From Candidatus Moraniibacteriota bacterium (GTDB lineage Bacteria > Patescibacteriota > Minisyncoccia > Moranbacterales > UBA2206), in the NCBI GenBank assembly GCA_003483065.1, contig DMWY01000018.1, positions 8,160 through 72,159 of the forward strand: a stretch of DNA of 64,000 nucleotides. The letters run 5' to 3'. The notes beneath the pieces were generated by a model. It did not search any database. It had not been told where the DNA came from and worked only from the letters and a program-made list of their open reading frames with translations. Position numbers and translations under genes: made by a program. Position 1 is the first letter of the stretch, and the number at the start of each line of letters is the position of its first letter. Shown one piece after another: positions 9,444 through 57,223 of this stretch.

Positions 9444-10256
9444 TTAAACTTGTTGGACATTTTTCTTCATTCCGTGAGCCATATATATTTTGTCGCAAGC
9501 TACTGCCAAAAAAGAAATTGGGAGAAGGGCAATTGATCCAAGGAAAAGTAATGCCGAAGCTACTGACAAAACATTCGATACATTCGGCCAAACTTTTTCG
9601 GGATTAATTTTGACAGTGTTTTTGTTTTCTGGGATTGTTTTAGTTAGCGTTTCTTCTTTTATCGCTAAAACTTGTGGCAGAATTCCTGCTCCCCTCTCGA
9701 GCAAATCAGAACTTTTTTGCATTATGAAATTTTCGCCATCTTTTGAAGCCATAAGCGCTCCCGCTCTAGTTCCAAATTCTTGCACTGTGATAAGTGACAT
9801 TTCACCATCTATCTCTCCTGCGCCAAACGCTACACCAATTTCTTTGTAATCAGGATTCAAAATATTTTTTCGGTGCGTCGGGCTTTTCATCCAAGCTGAT
9901 TGTTGCTCTTCGGCGCTGGTATAATTGATGGCTAAATTTTCACCGGCGAATTGATAGTCGTAGTTCTCGCGTGCAAACCAGTGCCATGGAGTTTTTCCAC
10001 TTGGTGAAGTATGCGCGAAATAACTATTCTTGATCATATCATTGAGTTTGTCATTAGCCACCCTGGAAAGTGCTTCGTTTTGACTAAGTGGTGCCAAGCC
10101 TTCTTTCTCTCGAGCGATGTTTACCAGTTGGATAACTTTTCCAGGATTTATTTCACTCGCCATTATCGGCACAGCAAAAATAAAGAACATAATTGCAATT
10201 GCAACCACCTCCACAAAACATTCTTCTATTAATTTGATTTTTAATCTCTTAATCAT
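9444..10256 (-). CDS. CAP/SCP/PR-1 domain protein, membrane-anchored
   Basis: YFAHTSPSGKTPWHW...GENLA...WMKSPTHRKNIL...YKEIGVA, with an N-terminal TM helix and C-terminal hydrophobic segments. Confidence 0.7.
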   Translation of the reverse strand: MIKRLKIKLIEECFVEVVAIAIMFFIFAVPIMASEINPGKVIQLVNIAREKEGLAPLSQNEALSRVANDKLNDMIKNSYFAHTSPSGKTPWHWFARENYDYQFAGENLAINYTSAEEQQSAWMKSPTHRKNILNPDYKEIGVAFGAGEIDGEMSLITVQEFGTRAGALMASKDGENFIMQKSSDLLERGAGILPQVLAIKEETLTKTIPENKNTVKINPEKVWPNVSNVLSVASALLFLGSIALLPISFLAVACDKIYMAHGMKKNVQQV

Positions 10257-15962: not shown

Positions 15963-16076
15963 CTTACGAATTACGAACTTTTACAAATGTACTAATGTGG
16001 ACTGAGTACTTTTTTATTATTTCAATTTAATTATTCGTATTTCGTACATTCGTACCGATTCGTAATTCGTAAGGGT
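15963..16076. repeat. Small TIR-bounded element (perfect 16-bp inverted repeats ccttacgaattacgaa) with internal TACGAAT heptad repeats
   Basis: 15963 ccttacgaattacgaa...ttcgtaattcgtaagg 16076. The interior reads ttcgtatttcgtacattcgtaccgattcgtaattcgtaa. The CCTTACGAA terminus also bounds the 26156..26594 segment. Confidence 0.6.
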
Positions 16077-16078
16077 TA

Positions 16079-17710
16079 TCACATCTTTTCTGGAGAATTT
16101 ACTCCTAACAATCTGAGAACTTCTCCTAACACTATTCTAACAGCATTTATGAGGTTTAGTCTAGCGCTAGTTAGCTCTGGATTTTCATCATCTAGCACCT
16201 TGCAATCATTGTAAAAAGAATGAAATTTATCCGCCAATTTTATCGCATAATACGGCAATTTATGCACTTCATAACTTTCGGAAACATCCTCAATGATTTG
16301 CGGAAATTTGTCGAGTTCTCGAATTAAACTCAATTCTTTTTTATGAGTTAGTAATGACAAATCTACCTTATTCCTCCTCTCCTCTTGGGAGAGGATGTCC
16401 CGACAAAGTCGGGACAGGAGAGGGCTCTCTTTCACCTTCTCTAAGATACTACAAATTCTAGCGTGCGCATATTGCACATAGAAGACTGGATTTTTTTCAG
16501 ATCTTTCTTTTGCCAAACCAAGATCGAAAGTCATATGAGTGTTAGCATCATACATCAAAAAGAAAAATCGCACGGCGTCCAAACCAACTTCATCTATCAG
16601 CTCATCAATATATACAACATTCCCAGCACGCTTGCTCATTTTTGCTTCTTTGCCATCTTTCACAAGACGCACCAATTGCACAATCACAAACTTGAGTTCT
16701 CCCTTGAACCCAAGGGCTTCGGCTGCTGCGCGAAATCTCAAAATATAGCCATGATGATCAGCGCCCCAAACTTCAATTATTTTTTCAAATTTTCTGTCTA
16801 TTTTATTCAAGATATATCCACAATCCGAGGCAAAATATGTTTTTTGTCCGTCTTTTTTAACAAGCACTCGATCTTTGTCATCGCCAAATTTTGTCGTCTT
16901 AAGCCACATCGCTCCATCATTTTCAAAAGTTAATTCTTTCTTTTTCAATTTTTCAATCGCCTTATCAATATAGCCATCTTCATAAAGAGATTTTTCTGAC
17001 ATCCAGCTATCAAAATTAATTTTCATCTTTTCTTTGATTGTTTTTTTGATAATCTCATCCAGCACAATCTTGGCCGACTTTTCTCCAATTTCTTTGATAT
17101 CTTTTATTTTTGCAAATTTTTTATTCAATTGATCAATATATTCCCCGGAATATGCCGCCTCCTCATCCTTCAAAACACTGTGACCTAATTTGAGCAATTG
17201 CTCTCCAGCATCATTCACATAATATTCATTAACATTTTCATAACCCGCCTTTTCCAAAACTTTTCCAATCACATCTCCGAAAAATCCTCCTCGACCATTG
17301 CCCAGATGAAGCGGTCCAGTCGGGTTGGCAGAAATAAATTCATTGTTAACTTTTTTTCCTTTTCCAGTTTTGCCTTCGCCAAACTTATTTTCTCTTTCAT
17401 TTATCTCTCGAACTTTGTCCTGCAAATATTCTTTAGACAAATAGAAATTTATATACCCCGGTACAACAACTTCCACTTTCTCAAAAAATTGCTGTACGGA
17501 CAGGTCGCGACCTGTCCCTACCAAAAAATTTTTAATCTCCTCAGCTACTGTTATCGGATTTTTCTTGGCACTCTTACTCAAAACCATCGCCACATTAGTC
17601 GTATAATCACCAAAAGCTTCAAGCTTCGGATAGTCAACATCAACCTCACCTATTTCATAACCGAGGTCTTTCACCGCTTTTTCTATAAGTTTTTGAATTT
17701 CTTGTTTCAT
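16079..17710 (-). CDS. argS: Arginine--tRNA ligase
   Basis: N-terminal Arg-tRNA-binding domain, HIGH motif (PTGPLHLGNGRG), and C-terminal DALR anticodon-binding region. Carries the in-frame palindromic insertion at 16373..16424. Confidence 0.9.
   Translation of the reverse strand: MKQEIQKLIEKAVKDLGYEIGEVDVDYPKLEAFGDYTTNVAMVLSKSAKKNPITVAEEIKNFLVGTGRDLSVQQFFEKVEVVVPGYINFYLSKEYLQDKVREINERENKFGEGKTGKGKKVNNEFISANPTGPLHLGNGRGGFFGDVIGKVLEKAGYENVNEYYVNDAGEQLLKLGHSVLKDEEAAYSGEYIDQLNKKFAKIKDIKEIGEKSAKIVLDEIIKKTIKEKMKINFDSWMSEKSLYEDGYIDKAIEKLKKKELTFENDGAMWLKTTKFGDDKDRVLVKKDGQKTYFASDCGYILNKIDRKFEKIIEVWGADHHGYILRFRAAAEALGFKGELKFVIVQLVRLVKDGKEAKMSKRAGNVVYIDELIDEVGLDAVRFFFLMYDANTHMTFDLGLAKERSEKNPVFYVQYAHARICSILEKVKESPLLSRLCRDILSQEERRNKVDLSLLTHKKELSLIRELDKFPQIIEDVSESYEVHKLPYYAIKLADKFHSFYNDCKVLDDENPELTSARLNLINAVRIVLGEVLRLLGVNSPEKM
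16373..16424 (+). repeat. In-frame palindromic insertion element (PIE) copy A, inside argS
   Basis: cctcctctcctcttgggagagg atgtcccgacaaagtcgggacag gagaggg. Arms cctctcc/ggagagg plus an internal hairpin gtcccgac/gtcgggac. Encodes PLLSRLCRDILSQEERR within ArgRS with no stop. Confidence 0.75.
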
Positions 17711-19848: not shown

Positions 19849-20771
19849 TATTTTCTATTCAAAATATCAAAACCACTAGTCACTGCATCACAGATGAAAT
19901 TTTCCAGTTGAGTGAAATCATTTTTGAGTTGCGCTGCCCGAAGATAGGCATAATATAATCGTTTGTTTTCTTGTTTTATCACGGCTGGAGCAATATTGCT
20001 CTTTAGAAACATTGCCACTAAAATCAATCTTCCAATTCGTCCGTTGCCATCAGAAAATGGATGGATTTGCTCAAATCTGGCGTGAATATCGGAAGCATGA
20101 CTAATTATATCTTTTGGTTTTTTATTTAAATCTACAAAAAGACTTTCCATTAATTTTGTAATCTTGAGATAATTCGCCGTTGGCACATTTGAGCCAACAA
20201 TTCGCACTCCGTGACGACGATAAATTCCAGCATCGTCTCTAATTCCATTCATTAGAATACTATGCAATTTCAAAACCAACGCCTCATCTATTTTTTTTAT
20301 ATTCTCTAATTGTCTAAAAAGATATTTCAAAGCCGTTTGATGATTTTTAACCTCAAATTGTTCCACTAAACTTTTGTCTGGTATTGTTCTGTTATTAAAC
20401 ATAATGTCAGCAGTTTCATCCTCCGACAAAGTTGACCCTTCTATTTTGTTGGAATTATAGGTAAGGGAAAGCATAAATTGATCACGGATGTCTGGATTTT
20501 TCGAAATAGTTCTCAGAATATTTTTATGCCTTGCTGATTCTTTGATAATCAATTCTTTTTTGGCCAATAAAACGGTTCCGGGAATTGTTTTTTGCCCAGT
20601 ATATTCAAGATACATCGCATCGATAGAATCTTGTTGTTTTTTTCTTGGCTTGGATTTTCCATTCCACCAATTATTGAGTGCCACAAAAGAAACGCCTATT
20701 TTAGCCGCCATTTTGGTCTGAGTGAGACCTGATAAATCCTGGATGATTTTTAGCTTATCTTTCGTATTCAT
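19848..20771 (-). CDS. fic: Fic/DOC family protein with N-terminal HTH
   Basis: Fic motif HPFSDGNGRIGRL (HPFx[DE]GNGR). N-terminal HTH (LSGLTQTKMAAKIGVSFVALNNWWNG). Flanked by roughly 80-bp direct repeats. Confidence 0.85.
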   Translation of the reverse strand: MNTKDKLKIIQDLSGLTQTKMAAKIGVSFVALNNWWNGKSKPRKKQQDSIDAMYLEYTGQKTIPGTVLLAKKELIIKESARHKNILRTISKNPDIRDQFMLSLTYNSNKIEGSTLSEDETADIMFNNRTIPDKSLVEQFEVKNHQTALKYLFRQLENIKKIDEALVLKLHSILMNGIRDDAGIYRRHGVRIVGSNVPTANYLKITKLMESLFVDLNKKPKDIISHASDIHARFEQIHPFSDGNGRIGRLILVAMFLKSNIAPAVIKQENKRLYYAYLRAAQLKNDFTQLENFICDAVTSGFDILNRK

Positions 20772-20829
20772 AAAGCTATTATACTAAACTTTATAAAGTT
20801 TGTCAATATTATAAGTTTTTATAAAGTTT

Positions 20830-21513
20830 CTATACCATACACTTCCTCACTGGTCGGAAACTTTTGCGGTGGATTTCGCAGGGGCCGTGTTTTTTGAGAG
20901 CGTCCATATGTATTTTTGTTCCATAGCCTTTATGCTGAGCAAAATTATATTCAGGATAAATTTTGTGCATTTCTTCCATCATGCGGTCACGCGTCACCTT
21001 GGCATAAATCGAAGCGGCGGAAATTGATTTGATCAGTTTATCCCCACTCACAATTGCTCTTTGCTCAAAAGAAAAGTTGGGAATTTTTTTGTTGCCGTCT
21101 AAAAGAATTATTAATTTAGAATTATCAAAATCTTGAATTTTAGTTTTCAATTGTGAAACCGCACTTTTCATCGCGAGAAAAGAAGCTTCCAAGATATTCA
21201 CCCGATCAATCGTCCGATGATCACAAATTCCCACTCCCACATGAAAATTCTCCCCTATAAAATCAAACAGGCTTTCTCTCTGTTTTTCCGAGAGCATTTT
21301 GGAATCGCGGATAAGATTGAATTTTTCCAAATCCTTCTCGCCCTTAGGGAGAGGATGTCGTGTACTCACGACAGGAGAGGGAACACGCAAAGCTACCGCA
21401 CACGCCACAACAGGCCCAGCCAGTGGTCCTCTTCCCACCTCATCAATCCCGATGATAATTTCATATCCTTCGGCGCTTAATTTTTCCTCTAACTCAAATG
21501 TTGACTTTATCAT
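20830..21513 (-). CDS. rnhB: Ribonuclease HII
   Basis: IGIDEVGRGPLAGPVVACAV...DSK RNase HII motifs. Carries the in-frame palindromic insertion at 21333..21381. Confidence 0.9.
   Translation of the reverse strand: MIKSTFELEEKLSAEGYEIIIGIDEVGRGPLAGPVVACAVALRVPSPVVSTRHPLPKGEKDLEKFNLIRDSKMLSEKQRESLFDFIGENFHVGVGICDHRTIDRVNILEASFLAMKSAVSQLKTKIQDFDNSKLIILLDGNKKIPNFSFEQRAIVSGDKLIKSISAASIYAKVTRDRMMEEMHKIYPEYNFAQHKGYGTKIHMDALKKHGPCEIHRKSFRPVRKCMV
21333..21381 (+). repeat. In-frame palindromic insertion element (PIE) copy B, inside rnhB
   Basis: ccttctcgcccttagggagagg atgtcgtgtactcacgacag gagaggg. Inner hairpin gtcgtg/cacgac is compensatory relative to copies C and D. Encodes RVPSPVVSTRHPLPKGE. Confidence 0.75.
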
Positions 21514-21648: not shown

Positions 21649-21987
21649 ATGGTGAAAACAGAAAAAAAAGTAGCGGAAGAAAATAGTGGTAAAAAACTTA
21701 TCATTTTCATCTTCACTTTATTGTTTGCAATTGCAATAGTGAAGACAGTTCAATTTTCCTATAATCATTTAACAACAAATAAGGGGGTGGAGTTATATTA
21801 TTTACAAAATAAGGCCGCCCTGATTGAAAATGGAACGTTGGTCTTAAAAAAAATAACCGCCGGATTTAACAAGAAGATAGATGAGATATCAAAAACAAGG
21901 GAAAAGTATCCCGCCGGCGAACCCATTCCAAAAAAAATTGACCTCTGTAAAATAATTGCAGGAAAGGAGGTGATCCATGATCATTGA
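21649..21987 (+). CDS. Hypothetical small membrane protein (first gene of a two-gene module)
   Basis: 112 aa, one TM helix, AGGAG RBS. Stop overlaps the next start (ATGA). Confidence 0.5.
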   Translation: MVKTEKKVAEENSGKKLIIFIFTLLFAIAIVKTVQFSYNHLTTNKGVELYYLQNKAALIENGTLVLKKITAGFNKKIDEISKTREKYPAGEPIPKKIDLCKIIAGKEVIHDH

Positions 21988-22225
21988 TTTAAATAAGGGC
22001 GACGTGGTCAAATTGCCAAACAATATTACGGCGCGCCTATTCAACATCTTTACAATAACACCAAGGGAAGTCTCTTATATTTTGAAAGATGTTGCATCGG
22101 GAAAATTTTATCTAAGAATTTTCCAAAAAACAGACGAGGGCGTCAACCTAGAAGATTGCATAATAAATGTTGTGCCTAGCAAAAAAACACCAGCCTATTT
22201 TGCCATTTATCCATATAAGCGATAA
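21977..22225 (+). CDS. Hypothetical protein (second gene of a two-gene module)
   Basis: 82 aa, AAGGAGG RBS, followed by a strong terminator. Confidence 0.5.
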   Translation: MIIDLNKGDVVKLPNNITARLFNIFTITPREVSYILKDVASGKFYLRIFQKTDEGVNLEDCIINVVPSKKTPAYFAIYPYKR

Positions 22226-22557: not shown

Positions 22558-22566
22558 AAATTGCTT

Positions 22567-25500
22567 ATGCCAAAGTTCACTCACCTCCACGTCCACACTC
22601 ACTATAGTTTACTCGACGGTCTAGCTAAAGTCGATGAGATTCTTGATCGTGCCAAAGAACTTGGGATGGACTCTCTTGCCATTACTGATCACGGCGTACT
22701 TTACGGCGCCATTGAGTTTTATATCAAAGCCAAAGAACGCGGGATAAAACCCATCATCGGTTGTGAGATGTATCTGACATCTGGAGATTATTTGAGCAAA
22801 AATAACACCCGAGAAGACAAAACTCGCTATCACTTGATTTTGCTCGCCAAAAATGAAATCGGCTACAAAAATCTGATGAAACTAATTTCCGTGGCACACT
22901 TGGAAGGTTTCTATTATAAACCGCGAATCAACAAAGCACTTTTGCGAAAATATAGCGAGGGACTAATCGGACTATCCGCTTGCGCGCAAGGAGAAATTCC
23001 AGAAACCGTTATAAACGGAAAAATTGAAGATGCTGAGAAGCTAGCCCTGGAATATCAAGAAATTTTTGGCAAAGGTAATTTCTATTTGGAAATTCAACAT
23101 CATCCAAAAATGACTAACCAAAAAATTGCCAACGATGCGTTGATTGGAATTTCCAAAAAATTCGACATCCCTCTGGTCGCCACTAACGATATCCATTATA
23201 TAAACAAAGAAGACAACGTAATTCAAGATATTTTGCTCTGTATTCAGACTAACCGCAAAGTTACGGAAACTAATCGGATGAATTTTATGGATTTTGAGCT
23301 TTATCTCAAAAGCCCCGAGGAAATGGCTGAGCATTTCAAGGAAGTTCCGAAGGCACTATCAAACACTCAAGAAATTGTGGACAAATGCAATTTAGAAATA
23401 ACTCTCGGCGAAACTCAACTCCCTCATTTTGATGTGCCCGAAGGATATACGGCCGAAACATATCTTTTGAAAATTACCCAAGACGGTCTCAAAAAAAGAT
23501 TTGGTGAAAACATAACCGAAGAACATCGGCATAGAATGGATTACGAATTAGATATAATTCAAAAAACTGGTTTTGCATCATACTTTCTTATCGTGCAAGA
23601 TTTTGTAAACTGGGCCAAAGAGCAAGGCATCGTGGTGGGTCCAGGACGTGGCAGTGCGGCGGGAAGTTTTGTGTCCTATCTTATCGGCATCACTAACATC
23701 GATCCGATAAAATATGATTTACTGTTTGAAAGATTTTTGAACCCCGAGAGAATCTCCATGCCCGATGTGGATATGGACTTTGCTGACGACCGTCGAGATG
23801 AAGTTTTGGAATATGTCAGGCAAAAATATGGCAACGATCATGTAGCTCAAATTATCACTTTCGGAACTATGGCTGCGCGCGCGGCCATTCGAGACGCCGG
23901 ACGAGCTCTCGGACTCCCCTATGATTTTTGCGACAAAACTGCCAAAATGATTCCGATGTTTTCCACAATTTCTGATGCTCTGGAGTCAGTGAAAGAATTT
24001 AGTGATTTGCACAAAAATGATGAGGGTGGAAAAAAATTAATTGATAGCGCCTCACGCTTGGAAGGCGTCGTGCGTCATGCTTCGATGCATGCTTGTGGAG
24101 TGGTTATTACTAAAGAACCCGTGACAGAATATACCCCTTTGCAAAAAATCACTGGCAAGGGTGATGGCACCGTGACGCAATATTCCTCTTCAACTAAATA
24201 TAGTTTTGTAGAAAAAATTGGCCTCCTTAAGATGGATTTTCTGGGGCTAAAAAATCTCACCATTATCCAAAATGCTTTGAAAATTGTGAAAAAAACTTAT
24301 GGCCAAGATATTGATATCAACGACATTCCGCTAGAAGATGAAAAAACTTTCAAACTTTTGCAAGAAGCCAGAACTACGGGAGTGTTTCAATTGGAAAGTT
24401 CCGGCATGAAAAGATATTTGAAACTTTTAAAACCAAATGTTTTGGAAGACATCATTGCTATGGTGGCGCTCTACCGCCCCGGACCAATGGACTGGATTCC
24501 GGACTTCATTTCCAGAAAACATGGTGAGAAAGAAATCAAATATCTGCACCCTAATTTGAAACCAATCTTGGAAAAAACTTATGGCGTAGCGGTCTATCAA
24601 GAACAAGTTATGCAGATTGCTCAAGCTTTGGCTGGTTTCACGCTTGGTGAAGCGGATGTGCTTCGAAAAGCCATGGGCAAAAAAATCTTTGCGCTTATTC
24701 AGGAACAAAAACATAAATTCATTGAAGGCTGTATGAAGCAAGGCATCGCCGGCACGGTGGGCGAAAAAGTTTTTGCCTATATTGAACCTTTTGCGGGGTA
24801 CGGATTTAACAGAAGTCACGCCGCTTGCTATGCCTTGGTTGGATACCAAACAGCCTACCTCAAAGCACATTTTCCAGCCGAATTTATGGCGGCCCTGCTC
24901 ACTTCTGATCAAGACAACATCGATCGCGTGGCGATTGAAATTGCTGAATGTCGAGAAATGGGTATTGAGGTTTTACCACCTAATGTCAATGAAAGTTTTG
25001 AGCAATTTGCGGTTATAACAGACGCAGAAAATAATACTAAAAAAATTCGCTTTGGACTAAACGCCGTTAAAAATGTTGGCCACACTATTGCCCATGAAAT
25101 TGTGGAAGAAAGAAAAAGGAATGGAAAATTTTTGAGTCTTAATGATTTCATAGAAAGAGTGCGCCACAAAGATCTCAACAAAAAATCCATTGAGGCTCTT
25201 TCCAAAGTTGGCGCGTTAGAAGAATTTTCCGAAAGAAATTCCATCATCGCTTCCATTGAAAATATCTTGGCGCATTCTAAAAATATTGAGAAGCTCAAAA
25301 ATTCCAATCAGACCAGTCTTTTTGGAGACGCTGACATCAAATTACCACCGATAAAATTAGAAGTCTCGATAGAAGCTTCTAAAAAAGAGAAGCTAACTTG
25401 GGAAAAAGAACTTCTCGGACTTTATATTAGCGATCATCCCGTCAAAGACTATCAGGAATATTTTGAAAAAATGGCCTTGCCAATTCGAAACATTGGCGCA

Positions 25501-26118
25501 GAGTCAGTTGGGCAAATGGTGTCGGTGGGTGGGATAATTTCCAAGATAAAAAAGATTTTTCTCAAAAATCAAAAAACAATGATGTTTGTCACGCTGGAAG
25601 ATATGAATTCCACCATGGAAATTCTGGTTTTTCCAAAAGTTTTGGAAGCAACCGGATCGATCTGGCAAGAGGAAAAAATAATTTTGGCGAGTGGAAAAAT
25701 TTCTGACAAAGATGGTAGTTTCAAATTACTCTGCGACACAGTCAAGGTCGTCAACGAAAATGAATTGGAAAATTTCAAAAGAATTCTACACACCCAAAGA
25801 AACAACGGCGGTGAGCCTACAAAAAAATCCCTTCCCAATCCTCCTCTCCCCTCGGGAGAGGATGTCGCGTACTCGCGACAGGAGAGGGAGAATCTTAGTA
25901 AGTCTTCCAAACTCATCATCACCCTCCCACCAAATTTCGACAAAGCCATCCTCAAAAATCTTTCTTCCCTGTTTGATCGTTGCGAACTAGGCGCTATGAA
26001 AGTATACTTATCTATCAACAACTCAAAACTTGAAACACCCTATTGCATCCAAAATACCGCGGAACTCGAAAAAGCCTTGAAGATAATTGTGCCAGAAGGG
26101 AAAGTGGAGATTTGGTAG
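22567..26118 (+). CDS. dnaE: DNA polymerase III alpha subunit
   Basis: PHP domain N-terminus ([13 protein letters not shown]), polymerase core ([27 protein letters not shown]), OB fold. Carries the in-frame palindromic insertion at 25840..25888. Confidence 0.95.
   Translation: [1183 protein letters not shown]
25840..25888 (+). repeat. In-frame palindromic insertion element (PIE) copy C, inside dnaE
   Basis: cctcctctcccctcgggagagg atgtcgcgtactcgcgacag gagaggg. Encodes [17 protein letters not shown] near the DnaE C-terminus. Confidence 0.8.
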
Positions 26119-26125
26119 AAATAAA

Positions 26126-26153
26126 AAGCGCCGTTGATTTTATCAACGACGCT
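26126..26153 (+). terminator. dnaE terminator hairpin
   Basis: agcgccgttgat ttt atcaacgacgct. Confidence 0.5.
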
Positions 26154-26155
26154 TG

Positions 26156-26594
26156 AACTTACGAAAGCCTTCAGCATCTTTTGCAGATTATTGCCACGGT
26201 CTTTTTTTGACGAACCTAGTCGAATTCCGTCGACACGGGTAAAGCATGACTTTATGCCAGTCACAGGCTCTTTTAGGTCAGATCGATTGCAATACAATCC
26301 TGCAGAATCAACTAATTAAACTGTGGTGCTATTCCTAATGACCACATATCAAATTTAATTCCTTCTAGTGCTGGTCGCACGTAGGCGCCAGATATAGGGT
26401 GGCAATTCATAATCTTAAATGCTTGAGAATAAATTTTAACTCAACGCATAAGACTATGTCCAATCCTATCATAGAATTAAACTCTTTATGTTTCATTAGA
26501 GCGGCACTCGCCCTCTATGATGAGACGAGCTACTTTAACCACAGACAACTAATTGCCTTGCAAGAAGGCTCACTGCATTTATTTCTTTCGTAAG
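26156..26594. repeat. GC-richer roughly 440-bp segment bounded by perfect inverted termini cttacgaaag / ctttcgtaag, candidate MITE or structured ncRNA
   Basis: Ends pair over 430 nt. Internal palindromes (gtcgaattccgtcgac). No credible ORF. Base composition departs from flanking DNA. The termini share CCTTACGAA with the 15963..16076 element. Confidence 0.45.
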
Positions 26595-26722
26595 GTACTA
26601 CTTTTTAGTTTACTTGGCATTATAGCATACTAATAAATTTTGTCAAGACAAACATTCCGTTATACTATAAATTTCCTTATATAAGCCATTTTTAGCCTAC
26701 TTCAATTTTTCAACTAAAATTT

Positions 26723-27277
26723 TTAGCCTATTTTCCTCACTTCTCCTCTTATCTTTTTATACTCCGGTACCATTTTTACCACGAGATTCCAAAAATCCCT
26801 GGAATGATTGAATTCGCCAAGGTGGCAGAGTTCATGGACGATTATGTAGTCGCAAAGTTTTTCGGAAAGATAGATTATCCGATAGCTGAAATTTAGGTTT
26901 CCCGATCTGGAACAACTCCCCCAGCGAGTCTTTTGATTGCGAATAGAAACTCGACCATATGAAAAACCATAGAACTCATTGAAATATTTCAATTTCTTTT
27001 CAGCGATTTCTCGCGCCAGCTTTTTATATTTCAAATAATCTTTTCTCGTTGCCGGTGGCAAAGCCGATTCCTTATTTTGGAAATGTTTTATCTTCCCAAG
27101 AATCCAATCCGCCTTTTCTCTCACAAACCTCATCGCAATTTCCTCACTGAGTCGCCACGGCACACTTACCACCAAAGTCGCATCATTTCTGATTGTGAGT
27201 CGCATGCACTTTGAACGTCGACTTTTTTTGAAAGTATATGAGATTCTTTCTTGATTTAATATTATTTCTTTTTGCAT
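26723..27277 (-). CDS. YgjP-like metal-dependent hydrolase (DUF45 / WLM-like HExxH)
   Basis: C-terminal IIVHELCHLGEFNHSRDFW zinc-metallohydrolase motif. Confidence 0.7.
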   Translation of the reverse strand: MQKEIILNQERISYTFKKSRRSKCMRLTIRNDATLVVSVPWRLSEEIAMRFVREKADWILGKIKHFQNKESALPPATRKDYLKYKKLAREIAEKKLKYFNEFYGFSYGRVSIRNQKTRWGSCSRSGNLNFSYRIIYLSEKLCDYIIVHELCHLGEFNHSRDFWNLVVKMVPEYKKIRGEVRKIG

Positions 27278-37456: not shown

Positions 37457-38902
37457 ATGAAATACCACATCAAAACATTTGGTTGCCAGATGAACATTTC
37501 AGATAGCGAAAGAATTGCTAGCTTTTTGGAGTCGCAAAAAATTAAACCAACCGAAGAAATAACAAAAGCTGATTTGGTTATTTTTAATACTTGTGGAATA
37601 AGACAGATGGCTGAGGATCGTGTTTATGGACAAATACATAATATCAGAAAACAAGAATCAATGATCAATGATCAACAAAAAAAGAAAACTATTATTCTCA
37701 CCGGATGTTTAGCTAATCGAAAAGATGTGCAGAGAAGATTGAAAAATAAGGTTGATTTGTTTTGTGAGATTAAAGATTTTCAAAAGGAATTTAGAAATTG
37801 GATAATTGGAAATTATTTGGAAATTGGAAATTGGAAATTGGAAATTCCGGCACAACAAAAAAACACGCCATGCTCAGATTATTTATCCATCAACCCCAAA
37901 TACAATAATTCGCATAGCGCCTTCGTGCCGGTTATGACCGGTTGCAACAATTTCTGTTCCTATTGCGTTGTGCCATACGCCAGAGGACGCGAAGTTTCAA
38001 GGCCTTCAAAGGAAATAATTATGGAAATAAAAAACCTGCTCAAAAATGGTTGCAAAGAAATAATTCTTCTTGGACAGAATGTGAATTCTTATCAGCATAT
38101 GCCCTCTCCCCAACCCTCTCCCGATTACGGGAGAGGGGGTAATTCCAATCCTTCTCCCCCTTTGGGGGAGATGTCGCGTACTCGCGACAGAGAGGGTGAC
38201 GTTGTAAATTTCCCCAAACTCTTGCAACTCATCGAAAAAATTCCCGGCCATTTTTGGATTTCTTTTATGTCTAGCCACCCGAAAGATTTTTCTTCGGAAT
38301 TAATTGAAACAATTGCGAAATCGAAAAAAATATGTGAGCATATCCATCTCCCCTTGCAAGCTGGAGACGACAAGATTCTTTTAGCAATGAATCGAAAATA
38401 CACCGCCAAAAAATATTTAAACCTAGTAGCAAAAATAAAGTCCGCTTTCGCTAAATATAAACCCAATAAATTATATTCCATCACCACCGATATAATTGTC
38501 GGTTTTCCCGGAGAAACAAAAAAACAATTTCTTGAGTCGGCGTGCGTCATGAAAAAAGTCGGCTATGATCTTGTCTATTTTGGCCAATTCTCTCCCCGCC
38601 CAGGAACTGTTGCTTTTAAAATGAAAGATAATGTTTCCAAAATCGAAAAAAAGAAACGGGAATTTTTTCTCAATGAAATCCTAAAAGAAACTGCTCTTGG
38701 AAATAATCAAAAATATCTTGGAAAAATTTTGGAGGTTCTCATTGATAAAAAGGAAGGTGCTAATTATTTCGGCCGAACTCACTCATTAAAAAATGTGAAG
38801 ATTATTTCCACACAGAAAAATTTGGTCGGAAAATTTGTAAAGGTAAAAATAACCAAAGCTAATATTTGGAATTTGGAAGCTTCTCTTTACATAAAGCCAT
38901 AA
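37457..38902 (+). CDS. miaB: tRNA (N6-isopentenyl-adenosine) methylthiotransferase MiaB-like radical SAM enzyme
   Basis: MTTase N domain (KTFGCQMNISDSE), radical SAM CxxxCxxC (GCNNFCSYCVVPYARG), C-terminal TRAM domain. Carries a tandem double in-frame palindromic insertion at 38102..38196. Confidence 0.85.
   Translation: MKYHIKTFGCQMNISDSERIASFLESQKIKPTEEITKADLVIFNTCGIRQMAEDRVYGQIHNIRKQESMINDQQKKKTIILTGCLANRKDVQRRLKNKVDLFCEIKDFQKEFRNWIIGNYLEIGNWKLEIPAQQKNTPCSDYLSINPKYNNSHSAFVPVMTGCNNFCSYCVVPYARGREVSRPSKEIIMEIKNLLKNGCKEIILLGQNVNSYQHMPSPQPSPDYGRGGNSNPSPPLGEMSRTRDREGDVVNFPKLLQLIEKIPGHFWISFMSSHPKDFSSELIETIAKSKKICEHIHLPLQAGDDKILLAMNRKYTAKKYLNLVAKIKSAFAKYKPNKLYSITTDIIVGFPGETKKQFLESACVMKKVGYDLVYFGQFSPRPGTVAFKMKDNVSKIEKKKREFFLNEILKETALGNNQKYLGKILEVLIDKKEGANYFGRTHSLKNVKIISTQKNLVGKFVKVKITKANIWNLEASLYIKP
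38102..38196 (+). repeat. In-frame palindromic insertion elements (PIE) copy D, two tandem units inside miaB
   Basis: ccctctccccaaccctctccc gattac gggagaggggg...ccttctccccctttgggggag atgtcgcgtactcgcgacag agaggg. Encodes MPSPQPSPDYGRGGNSNPSPPLGEMSRTRDREGD between the radical SAM and TRAM domains. Confidence 0.8.
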
Positions 38903-47813: not shown

Positions 47814-48317
47814 ATGAAAAAGCCTATCAGCGAAATCGTAAGGGGATTTTCGGAAAAACTTCCAAGATTCCCTGATGGCCGAATTAACTACACCAAATCA
47901 AACACGGCACCTGTTATCATAATTTTTGTCAAAGTTGGCGAAGAATTCTTGCTTCTAAGACGGAGCAAGAAGGTGCTTGCCTATCAAGGCAAGTGGAGTG
48001 GAAGCGCTGGCTTCCTAGATGATCAAAAACCAATTCGTGATAAAGTTTTAGAAGAGCTTGTCGACGAATTGGGTATTGACGAGAAAAAATTAAAAGAACT
48101 GATCACAAAGATCAAGATCAGTGAGTATTATGAATTTAGGGACGAACAAACCAATAGGATCTGGATTAAAAATCCAGTATTGGTTGAATTGAAAGAAAAA
48201 CCAGAAGTACGCATCAATTGGGAACACGATGCCTTTTGCTGGATTCGAAAAAATGAACTGTCCAAGTTCGACATAGTTGTCGATTTGGAACATGCCCTCG
48301 AATGCGCTTTACAATAA
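47814..48317 (+). CDS. NUDIX hydrolase
   Basis: NUDIX box GFLDDQKPIRDKVLEELVDELGI. GGAGG RBS. Confidence 0.75.
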   Translation: MKKPISEIVRGFSEKLPRFPDGRINYTKSNTAPVIIIFVKVGEEFLLLRRSKKVLAYQGKWSGSAGFLDDQKPIRDKVLEELVDELGIDEKKLKELITKIKISEYYEFRDEQTNRIWIKNPVLVELKEKPEVRINWEHDAFCWIRKNELSKFDIVVDLEHALECALQ

Positions 48318-48500
48318 ACCCTCCTTCGGTAAAACGCCGAGGATTAACTCTCAAAAAGAATTGGAGAAGGCGGACAGGCTTATATAGCTATCCGTCTTTT
48401 ATTTTCCCAAAATCATCCAAAATAGCTTTTTTATAGCTATATTGTCAACATCATATCAAAGTGATAATATGATTATATAAGATAATAATTAGTAAGCTTT

Positions 48501-57032: not shown

Positions 57033-57059
57033 AAAAATGATGCAAAATTTGGTGGGCGA

Positions 57060-57136
57060 TTCAAGATTCGAACTTGAGACCTCGTCATTATCAGTGACGC
57101 GCTCTAACCAACTGAGCTAATCGCCCGAAATATTTT
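57060..57136 (-). tRNA. tRNA-Ile (anticodon GAU), CCA encoded
   Basis: Reverse complement GGGCGATTAGCTCAGTTGGTTAGAGCGCGTCACTGATAATGACGAGGTCTCAAGTTCGAATCTTGAATCGCCCACCA folds as a cloverleaf with anticodon loop CTGATAA. Confidence 0.9.
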
Positions 57137-57150
57137 TTTTAAAAAAAATG

Positions 57151-57223
57151 TGGACCCTATCGGGCTCGAACCGATCACCCCCTGCTTGCAAAGCAGGTGC
57201 TCTACCAAATGAGCTAAGGGCCC
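57151..57223 (-). tRNA. tRNA-Ala (anticodon UGC) with G3:U70 identity pair
   Basis: Reverse complement GGGCCCTTAGCTCATTTGGTAGAGCACCTGCTTTGCAAGCAGGGGGTGATCGGTTCGAGCCCGATAGGGTCCA. Anticodon loop TTTGCAA. Acceptor stem has the G3-U70 wobble. CCA not encoded. Confidence 0.9.

Follow-up and report, generated by a model that had tools for sequence, protein, structure and literature searches.

The spacer between the convergent dnaE and hydrolase genes of the window (the whole 64,000-nt stretch analysed here) is likely to encode, on the minus strand between 26119 and 26646, a structured noncoding RNA that is transcribed independently, is probably stable and represents a new family. A structured RNA gene had been one of the readings offered by the first-pass annotation for the interval 26156-26594. 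That reading is now supported by a promoter, a terminator and conservation in a second lineage, but the extent given was too small and the minus strand has to be specified. The second lineage is represented by a diverged orthologue at the same locus, JGI contig Ga0209575_10000656 (L097), which a metagenome scan detected, the query being a pseudo-protein composed of two stop-free frames; an identical copy is present in L098.

The spacer and its inverted repeat

The source of the window is a groundwater Candidatus Moranbacteria genome (Patescibacteria/CPR). The best relatives of its dnaE are Moranbacteria MAGs, and contigs with DNA identical to the window occur in ENA, JGI and Logan (e.g. ANAN16 scaffold_830). 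Gene coordinates and domains bear out the described position of the segment: dnaE (plus strand, 22561-26118; PHP/DNA_pol3_alpha domains) converges with a YgjP-like metallohydrolase gene (minus strand, 26723-27277; PF01863), and 604 nt separate the two. The segment had also been described as GC-enriched. Its GC content of 40.0% (42.8% in the first half, 36.6% in the second) lies 10-15 points above other spacers (25-31% in those nearby), so the description holds relative to other intergenic DNA. It does not hold relative to coding DNA, which is equal in GC (39-41% for dnaE and the hydrolase gene; window average 36.6%).

The segment is bounded by a perfect inverted repeat, CTTACGAAAG at 26158-26167 and CTTTCGTAAG at 26585-26594, complementary at 10/10 positions and with 417 nt between the arms. 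The complementary ends were thus confirmed, except that the left arm begins at 26158 rather than at 26156, 2 nt off. Many internal inverted repeats were found as well, in keeping with the several palindromes noted earlier. The MFE z-score of the segment was -5.6 for the plus strand and -6.0 for the minus strand. By themselves, the inverted repeat and the fold energy make a weak observation: a 10-nt perfect repeat is at about chance level (it is 1 of 11 repeats in 1 kb), and comparably low z-scores occurred at 2 of 26 other sampled window positions. The observation gains meaning because a promoter and a terminator flank the segment and because it is conserved in a second lineage.

Elsewhere in the window, the 441 nt at 48000-48440, spanning a 167-aa ORF and the following spacer, had a z-score of about -6.5, and the 441 nt at 38000-38440, within a 481-aa ORF, had one of about -4.3 (20 shuffles only in each case). 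Part of a GC-rich double-hairpin repeat, about 58 nt long (ATCCTCCTCTCCCCTCGGGAGAGGATGTCGCGTACTCGCGACAGGAGAGGGA), recurs in the latter region. This repeat lies in frame in at least two protein-coding genes, at 25832-25890 in dnaE and at 21325-21382 in the RNase HII ORF, with 88% identity between these two copies and partial copies at 38170-38190 and 16372-16399. It is also present in dnaE of two relatives (L009 and L010), the matching dnaE linker is variable in two others (L011 and L012), and it resembles the in-frame palindromic elements of Rickettsia. Just upstream of dnaE (plus strand, 21649-22225), two small genes of 112 aa and 82 aa without a Pfam family overlap by 11 nt in a toxin-antitoxin-like arrangement, part of which is conserved in L009.

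A promoter and a terminator on the minus strand

The minus strand holds a unit larger than the interval first flagged, running from a promoter (26646-26619) through an ORF-less body to a terminator (26154-26117):

26119-26613, minus strand: predicted whole transcript, about 495 nt (promoter/terminator scan and L097 alignments; ends inferred)
26641-26646, minus strand: -35 hexamer TTGACA (promoter scan; 6/6 kept in L097)
26619-26627, minus strand: extended -10 element TGCTATAAT (promoter scan; 9/9 kept in L097)
26117-26154, minus strand: intrinsic terminator with a 13-bp stem (6 G-C pairs) and a 3-nt loop, then UUUUUAUUU (promoter/terminator scan)

The promoter is a perfect TTGACA-16-TGnTATAAT of the sigma-70-type consensus and lies 19 nt upstream of the 10-bp closing helix; transcription would start near 26613. 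The distance between the -35 and -10 boxes is 16 nt in the window and 17 nt in L097, and the sequence of this spacer has diverged. Two promoters matching at 12/12 positions were found in the 64-kb window, versus about 0.13 expected by chance. The only other one (20778-20806, minus strand) stands immediately upstream of an ATG at 20771, an arrangement that may mean a leaderless mRNA. A promoter of like type, with 11/12 matches and the TG extension, serves the tRNA-Ala/Ile operon.

At the other end, the terminator hairpin starts 3 nt past the repeat arm, and its U-tract adjoins the dnaE stop codon. The hairpin has no T-run on its plus-strand side, and the terminator is therefore oriented for the minus strand. 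What is generally expected of an RNA gene, namely its own promoter and an intrinsic terminator on one strand, kept in the orthologue, was found at this locus. The L097 version of the predicted transcript is about 415 nt long.

Conservation of the unit against a diverged background

We quantified the divergence of each part of the unit and of the flanking genes. The comparison involves two distinct sequences only, the window and L097 (L098 being identical to L097):

dnaE 4-fold degenerate sites: 39% different (164/417)
Hydrolase 4-fold sites: 42% different
dnaE codon position 1 and position 2: 6.7% and 2.5% different
Promoter region outside both boxes: 41% different (20/49), 59% identical
-35 and extended -10 boxes: 0/15 different
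Terminator and tail (26119-26155): 0/37 different
RNA body: 5.7% different (21/371 aligned nt), 94.3% identical

The RNA body differed significantly both from the promoter surroundings (Fisher, p = 2e-10) and from the dnaE 4-fold sites (p = 2e-31), and just outside the transcript, on both sides, identity fell to 79-85%. On this comparison the RNA body is under strong purifying selection at the nucleotide level. A recent horizontal copy cannot explain the conservation of the body, because neutral-looking divergence sits inside the unit, between the promoter boxes. What can account for the pattern, as far as two sequences indicate, is purifying selection acting on body and terminator as well as on the promoter boxes. 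Unpaired and paired positions of the predicted structure were both conserved, with substitutions at 6.5% and 4.8% of them, respectively.

Predicted fold and the substitutions within it

The minus-strand MFE fold consists of five elements: a closing helix, a rod, an apical hairpin domain, a 3' three-way-junction domain and a small hairpin. Its parts are as follows:

26585-26594, minus strand: closing helix P1, 5' strand (CUUACGAAAG on the RNA), which is the right repeat arm; identical in L097
26158-26167, minus strand: closing helix P1, 3' strand (CUUUCGUAAG on the RNA), which is the left repeat arm; identical in L097
26288-26577, minus strand: long imperfect rod of stacked helices, about 290 nt (MFE structure)
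26504-26533, minus strand: GC-rich side hairpin on the rod (GUAGCUCGUCUC...GAGGGCGAGUGC); stem invariant in L097, one loop substitution
26394-26469, minus strand: apical hairpin domain (AUAGG/CCUAU, CAUAGUCUUA/UAAGAUUAUG, UUGAG/CUCAA); missing from L097
26371-26391, minus strand: GC-rich hairpin CUGGCGC-CUACGU-GCGACCAG at the top of the rod (MFE structure)
26209-26284, minus strand: 3' domain, predicted three-way junction; the most conserved stretch, with 59 consecutive identical nt
26168-26199, minus strand: small 3' hairpin (CC.UGGCA...UGCUG..GG) after an A-rich linker; three single-sided changes, all pairing-preserving

In the MFE structure the rod is built of helices of 6-12 bp, among them UCUUGCA/UGCAGGA, CAAUUAGUUG/UAAUUAGUUG, CUGUGGU/ACCACAG, CUAAUGA/UCAUUAG and GAGUUUAAUUCU/GGAAUUAAAUUU, and carries two GC-rich side hairpins; the predicted internal loops are small, without a large central bubble. 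The rod helices were also predicted independently for L097. Seven single-sided substitutions between the two rods preserve pairing and one breaks it; four of the pairing-preserving changes fall in the helix CAAUUAGUUG/UAAUUAGUUG. In the hairpin at 26371-26391, L097 has U·G in place of one C-G pair and has lost 1 nt. In the 3' domain, the GUCGA/UCGAC hairpin shows one U-A to U·G change, and the MFE structure of L097 folds 26209-26284 partly differently.

Overall, L097 folds on its own into largely matching helices (z = -4.7, versus -6.0 for the window), and 94 of 133 comparable base pairs were predicted independently in both sequences. The 76-nt indel between the two (window 26394-26469; A2 columns 151-226) matches predicted helices 8 and 9 (columns 152-227), such that L097 lacks exactly one predicted apical hairpin domain.

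All 13 substitutions at predicted paired sites are transitions. Pairing is kept at 12 of these sites by exchange between G·U and Watson-Crick pairs and broken at one, in counts that are biased toward the structure because it was predicted from the window sequence. Ten of the substitutions fall in Watson-Crick pairs of the window, and 9 of these give G·U and not A·C (binomial p = 0.011). If the plus strand is read instead, pairing in L097 would survive at just 4 of the 13 substituted sites. Strand-biased mutation is not the explanation, because C/U differences (7 at paired and 4 at unpaired sites) are balanced by A/G differences (6 and 3, respectively). There were no two-sided compensatory changes, with only two distinct sequences compared. 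Within the predicted structure, then, the substitutions preserve minus-strand base pairs, a pattern expected of RNA pairing but not of symmetric DNA.

A variable slot between dnaE and the hydrolase gene

In the window's own species, the segment was unchanged on all 11 retrieved contigs except for one SNP (26341 A>T in L005), an uninformative change that would disrupt the last base pair of one helix. At this locus, the RNA unit is missing from about 95 related Moranbacteria loci, including the closest dnaE relatives. No homologue of the segment was found by blastn/nhmmer at the dnaE loci of 80 GTDB species representatives retrieved via dnaE, and a two-sequence profile run over 107 loci (1.1 Mb) detected only the window's own species and L097/L098. 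Of the 14 members of the hydrolase 90% cluster, all but P0132, which sits on a 736-nt contig, were accounted for at the locus and included no further carriers, and the RNA was absent from three outgroup hydrolase loci.

The stop codons of dnaE and the hydrolase gene lie 5-25 nt apart in seven relatives (L009, L010, L013, L092, L099, L104 and L106), the first three of which have a dnaE up to 97% identical to that of the window at the protein level. Compared with such relatives, the window is about 550-615 nt longer between the two genes. In L011 and L094-96 the same interval carries a cargo unrelated to the RNA, two small ORFs and a gene for a 220-aa membrane protein, and the L011 cargo proteins gave no tblastn match to the segment. 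L101-L103 have other genes there. The interval between dnaE and the hydrolase gene is therefore a variable accessory slot, which in sister lineages holds nothing or unrelated small genes. By its distribution at this locus, the RNA appears to be an accessory gene. Since it is missing from about 95 related loci, it would be dispensable, and it may have arisen recently or be specific to certain lineages. The L097 hydrolase differs in its C-terminus and has a terminator of its own, together with a remnant of the window-type 3' end; this arrangement points to past recombination at the slot.

The cargo just mentioned occupies 9531-10990 in L011 and 3553-5241 in L094, as ORFs of 66/92 aa and 100/43 aa followed by the 220-aa multi-pass membrane protein, which has no Pfam family. 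L012 has a putative nucleotidyltransferase/HEPN-like pair at 9544-10230, judged from the ORF sequences.

Upstream of the RNA promoter we observed a further conserved module:

26677-26736, minus strand: conserved 60-nt module overlapping the hydrolase stop codon; conserved in L097, L011 and L102

It contains two direct repeats of TAGGCTAAAAAT (26688-26699 and 26719-26730), and a degenerate third copy is found at 26601-26615, shortly past the predicted start of transcription. The L097 version of the module is 93% identical and the L011 version 86%; in L011 the cargo is a different one, and the module stands ahead of the promoter for the 220-aa membrane protein. L102 is more distant, and there the module comes straight after the hydrolase gene. 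Its presence in L011 and L102 indicates that the module is an older feature of the hydrolase 3' region. To judge from these loci, it now seems to sit upstream of whichever cargo fills the slot, and it is possibly an operator. A copy of TAGGCTAAAAAT with one mismatch also lies at 20746-20757, near the other perfect promoter of the window.

Searches against known RNA families and proteins

Rfam 15 (4227 models) includes RNase P, tmRNA, SRP, 6S, ROOL, GOLLD, OLE and raiA as well as group I/II introns and small ribozymes. At gathering thresholds it returned two tRNAs only over the whole window. At E<=10, the locus and its L097 orthologue gave weak, terminator-driven or chance-like matches far below threshold, and 6S RNA (RF00013) gave none in either orthologue. 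ARAGORN reported tRNA-Ile and tRNA-Ala alone in the window and no tmRNA, and the P4-type motif GGAAAGUCC is absent from the segment sequence. The first-pass annotation had recognised no signature of RNase P, tmRNA, SRP or 6S, and the Rfam and ARAGORN results agree with it. As a side observation, tRNA-Ile(GAT) and tRNA-Ala(TGC) stand side by side at 57050-57223 (minus strand), an order familiar from the spacers of rRNA operons, but the 64-kb window yielded no rRNA.

These results bear on the possibility that the RNA is a highly diverged housekeeping RNA missed by Rfam in CPR, such as a 6S/Ms1-like rod, RNase P RNA or tmRNA. The sensitivity of Rfam for CPR lineages may be limited, the fold is rod-like with paired 5' and 3' ends, and the promoter is very strong, as for stable RNAs. 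Nevertheless, neither orthologue matched any such family at E<=10 with permissive filters, ARAGORN found no tmRNA and the P4-type motif is lacking. The rod moreover has small internal loops in place of a large central bubble, and absence at this locus from the closest relatives is unusual for a housekeeping RNA. We therefore regard a housekeeping identity as very unlikely.

Searches beyond Rfam gave a similar picture. Phage and plasmid collections yielded no match in a distant-mode search, and viral contigs yielded none to the repeat-pair pattern, to three conserved 18-20-mers or to a pseudo-protein. Counted by eye, there was no GGA enrichment of the CsrA type (about 5-6 GGA versus about 5 expected). 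Nothing relevant was found in the literature on structured RNAs of CPR or Moranbacteria.

The earlier statement that the segment has no convincing ORF was upheld by ORF scans and a protein search. Under genetic codes 11, 4 and 25, no ORF of more than 32 codons is contained in the transcript, and six-frame translations revealed no stop-free frame through the segment. A concatenated six-frame pseudo-protein, meant to catch a decayed gene or spurious ORF calls over homologous RNAs, had no match at E<=10 among 5.8 billion proteins. ORF extents differ between the window and L097, and none is conserved in extent. The indels between the two measure 1, 1, 1, 1, 2, 4 and 76 nt, and the six small ones cannot be reconciled with a conserved reading frame.

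In another explanation, the segment is what is left of an accessory cassette in decay, or serves to encode one or several very small proteins. This would fit a slot that is filled by protein-coding cargo in sister lineages and a GC content equal to that of coding DNA. It would also accommodate a 20-aa ORF with a TTG start (26548-26486), which is intact and identical in both lineages. However, the segment has no protein similarity in any frame, and a sequence in decay would not stay 94% conserved at the nucleotide level across all 370 nt. The 20-aa ORF has no good ribosome-binding site and lies in a stretch conserved at every position, which leaves no codon-position signal; the other small ORFs are broken by indels. 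To this explanation we give hardly any credence.

The inverted repeat as a probable closing helix rather than transposon ends

An ORF-less mobile element had been put forward as an equally possible reading. In this explanation the segment is a MITE whose 10-bp terminal repeats are transposase binding sites, related to the element at 15963-16076. That element measures 114 bp, lies between two minus-strand genes, and has 16-nt terminal inverted repeats (CCTTACGAATTACGAA / TTCGTAATTCGTAAGG) and five internal TTCGTA repeats. The segment resembles MITEs in its terminal inverted repeat (perfect at 10/10 nt), in the lack of an ORF and in its presence/absence polymorphism, and nine nucleotides (CCTTACGAA) are common to its ends and to those of the 15963-16076 element. 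The shared termini are thus real, but the match is not statistically compelling: for the 8-mer, at least 4 matches occurred in 9 of 100 shuffles, and 1.1 Mb of related DNA showed no enrichment of the 9-mer CCTTACGAA.

Absence from relatives with clean flanks had been named as favouring a MITE. Such absence was indeed observed in close relatives, but what these relatives lack is the promoter-to-terminator unit in its entirety, from 26122 to about 26676, and not just the repeat-bounded 437 bp. The bases next to the repeats (...GCTTGAA| and |GTACTAC..., that is, TTGAA and GTACT) form no target-site duplication. The segment is single-copy both in the 64-kb window and in 1.1 Mb from 107 related loci, and its repeat-pair pattern was not found in viral contigs. 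It occupies the same position with 94% identity in two lineages that are about 39% divergent at neutral sites, and it differs from MITEs in its nucleotide-level purifying selection and RNA-type substitutions, whose strand asymmetry is not predicted for a DNA-level element. With no target-site duplication, no second copy in the window or the 1.1 Mb of related loci, and strand-specific substitutions, the mobile element lost its equal standing and is exceedingly improbable. The repeat arms, identical in both lineages, behave as a closing helix rather than as transposon ends.

Scarcely credible, too, is a DNA-level, cis-acting spacer (an insulator and bidirectional terminator, or a replication-terminus or recombination site): the segment sits exactly between convergent genes that otherwise nearly abut and has a strong hairpin at the dnaE stop, but a terminator needs no conserved, promoter-driven body of about 440 nt, and the strand-specific G·U pattern favours RNA over DNA. 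A replication terminus or origin was rejected separately, as GC skew is negative and monotonic across the window, with no extremum here.

Possible role and comparison with known RNAs

We return to the structured noncoding RNA as the preferred reading. As predicted, the RNA would fold into a long multi-helix rod with two side hairpins, an optional apical domain and a 3' three-way-junction domain, and its clamped ends and terminator hairpin would make it a stable RNA acting in trans. At a speculative guess, and a doubtful one, it could be a protein-binding scaffold or a sequestering RNA rather than an antisense regulator or a ribozyme. We prefer this kind of role because the ends are clamped, the promoter is strong, and unpaired as well as paired positions are conserved. 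On a broader proposal our opinion is evenly divided: that the RNA is the founding member of a new Moranbacteria (CPR)-specific class of large (>400 nt) structured noncoding RNA, a self-contained unit in an accessory slot, whose role (RNP scaffold, protein sponge or ribozyme) has no described counterpart.

CPR/Patescibacteria have tiny, densely packed genomes with very few characterised noncoding RNAs. In such a genome it is costly to keep an RNA of about 500 nt whose conservation equals that of dnaE first codon positions and whose promoter is one of the two perfect 12/12 promoters of the 64-kb window; the RNA is therefore presumably important for the lineages that carry it. The alternation with protein-coding cargo in one slot offers a natural comparison for studying its function.

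6S RNA forms a rod, about 180-200 nt long, whose large central bubble imitates an open promoter. Like 6S RNA and mycobacterial Ms1, which are rods that bind RNA polymerase, the RNA described here has a very strong promoter and is predicted to fold into a long imperfect rod with its ends paired in a closing helix, and it is presumably stable. It differs from them in its length (415-495 nt versus roughly 180-300 nt), in the lack of a predicted large central bubble and of an Rfam match, and in not being conserved at its locus among close relatives.

ROOL, GOLLD, OLE and raiA are large orphan structured bacterial noncoding RNAs of 400-800 nt, whose function could not be deduced from sequence; for OLE, ROOL and GOLLD, both architecture and function have repeatedly proved surprising. 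The present RNA belongs to the general category of large orphan bacterial noncoding RNAs and shows none of the features that define membership of ROOL, GOLLD or OLE. Unlike these families and raiA, it has no covariance-model similarity, comes from a CPR/Patescibacteria host, is known from two lineages, and has no phage, tRNA or partner-protein genes as neighbours. It shares with all four the size class, a many-helix architecture, independent transcription and a position as a GC-richer island in AT-rich intergenic DNA, and with ROOL and GOLLD a patchy, accessory-like distribution. A new RNA of this kind would extend the list of large orphan RNAs to CPR.
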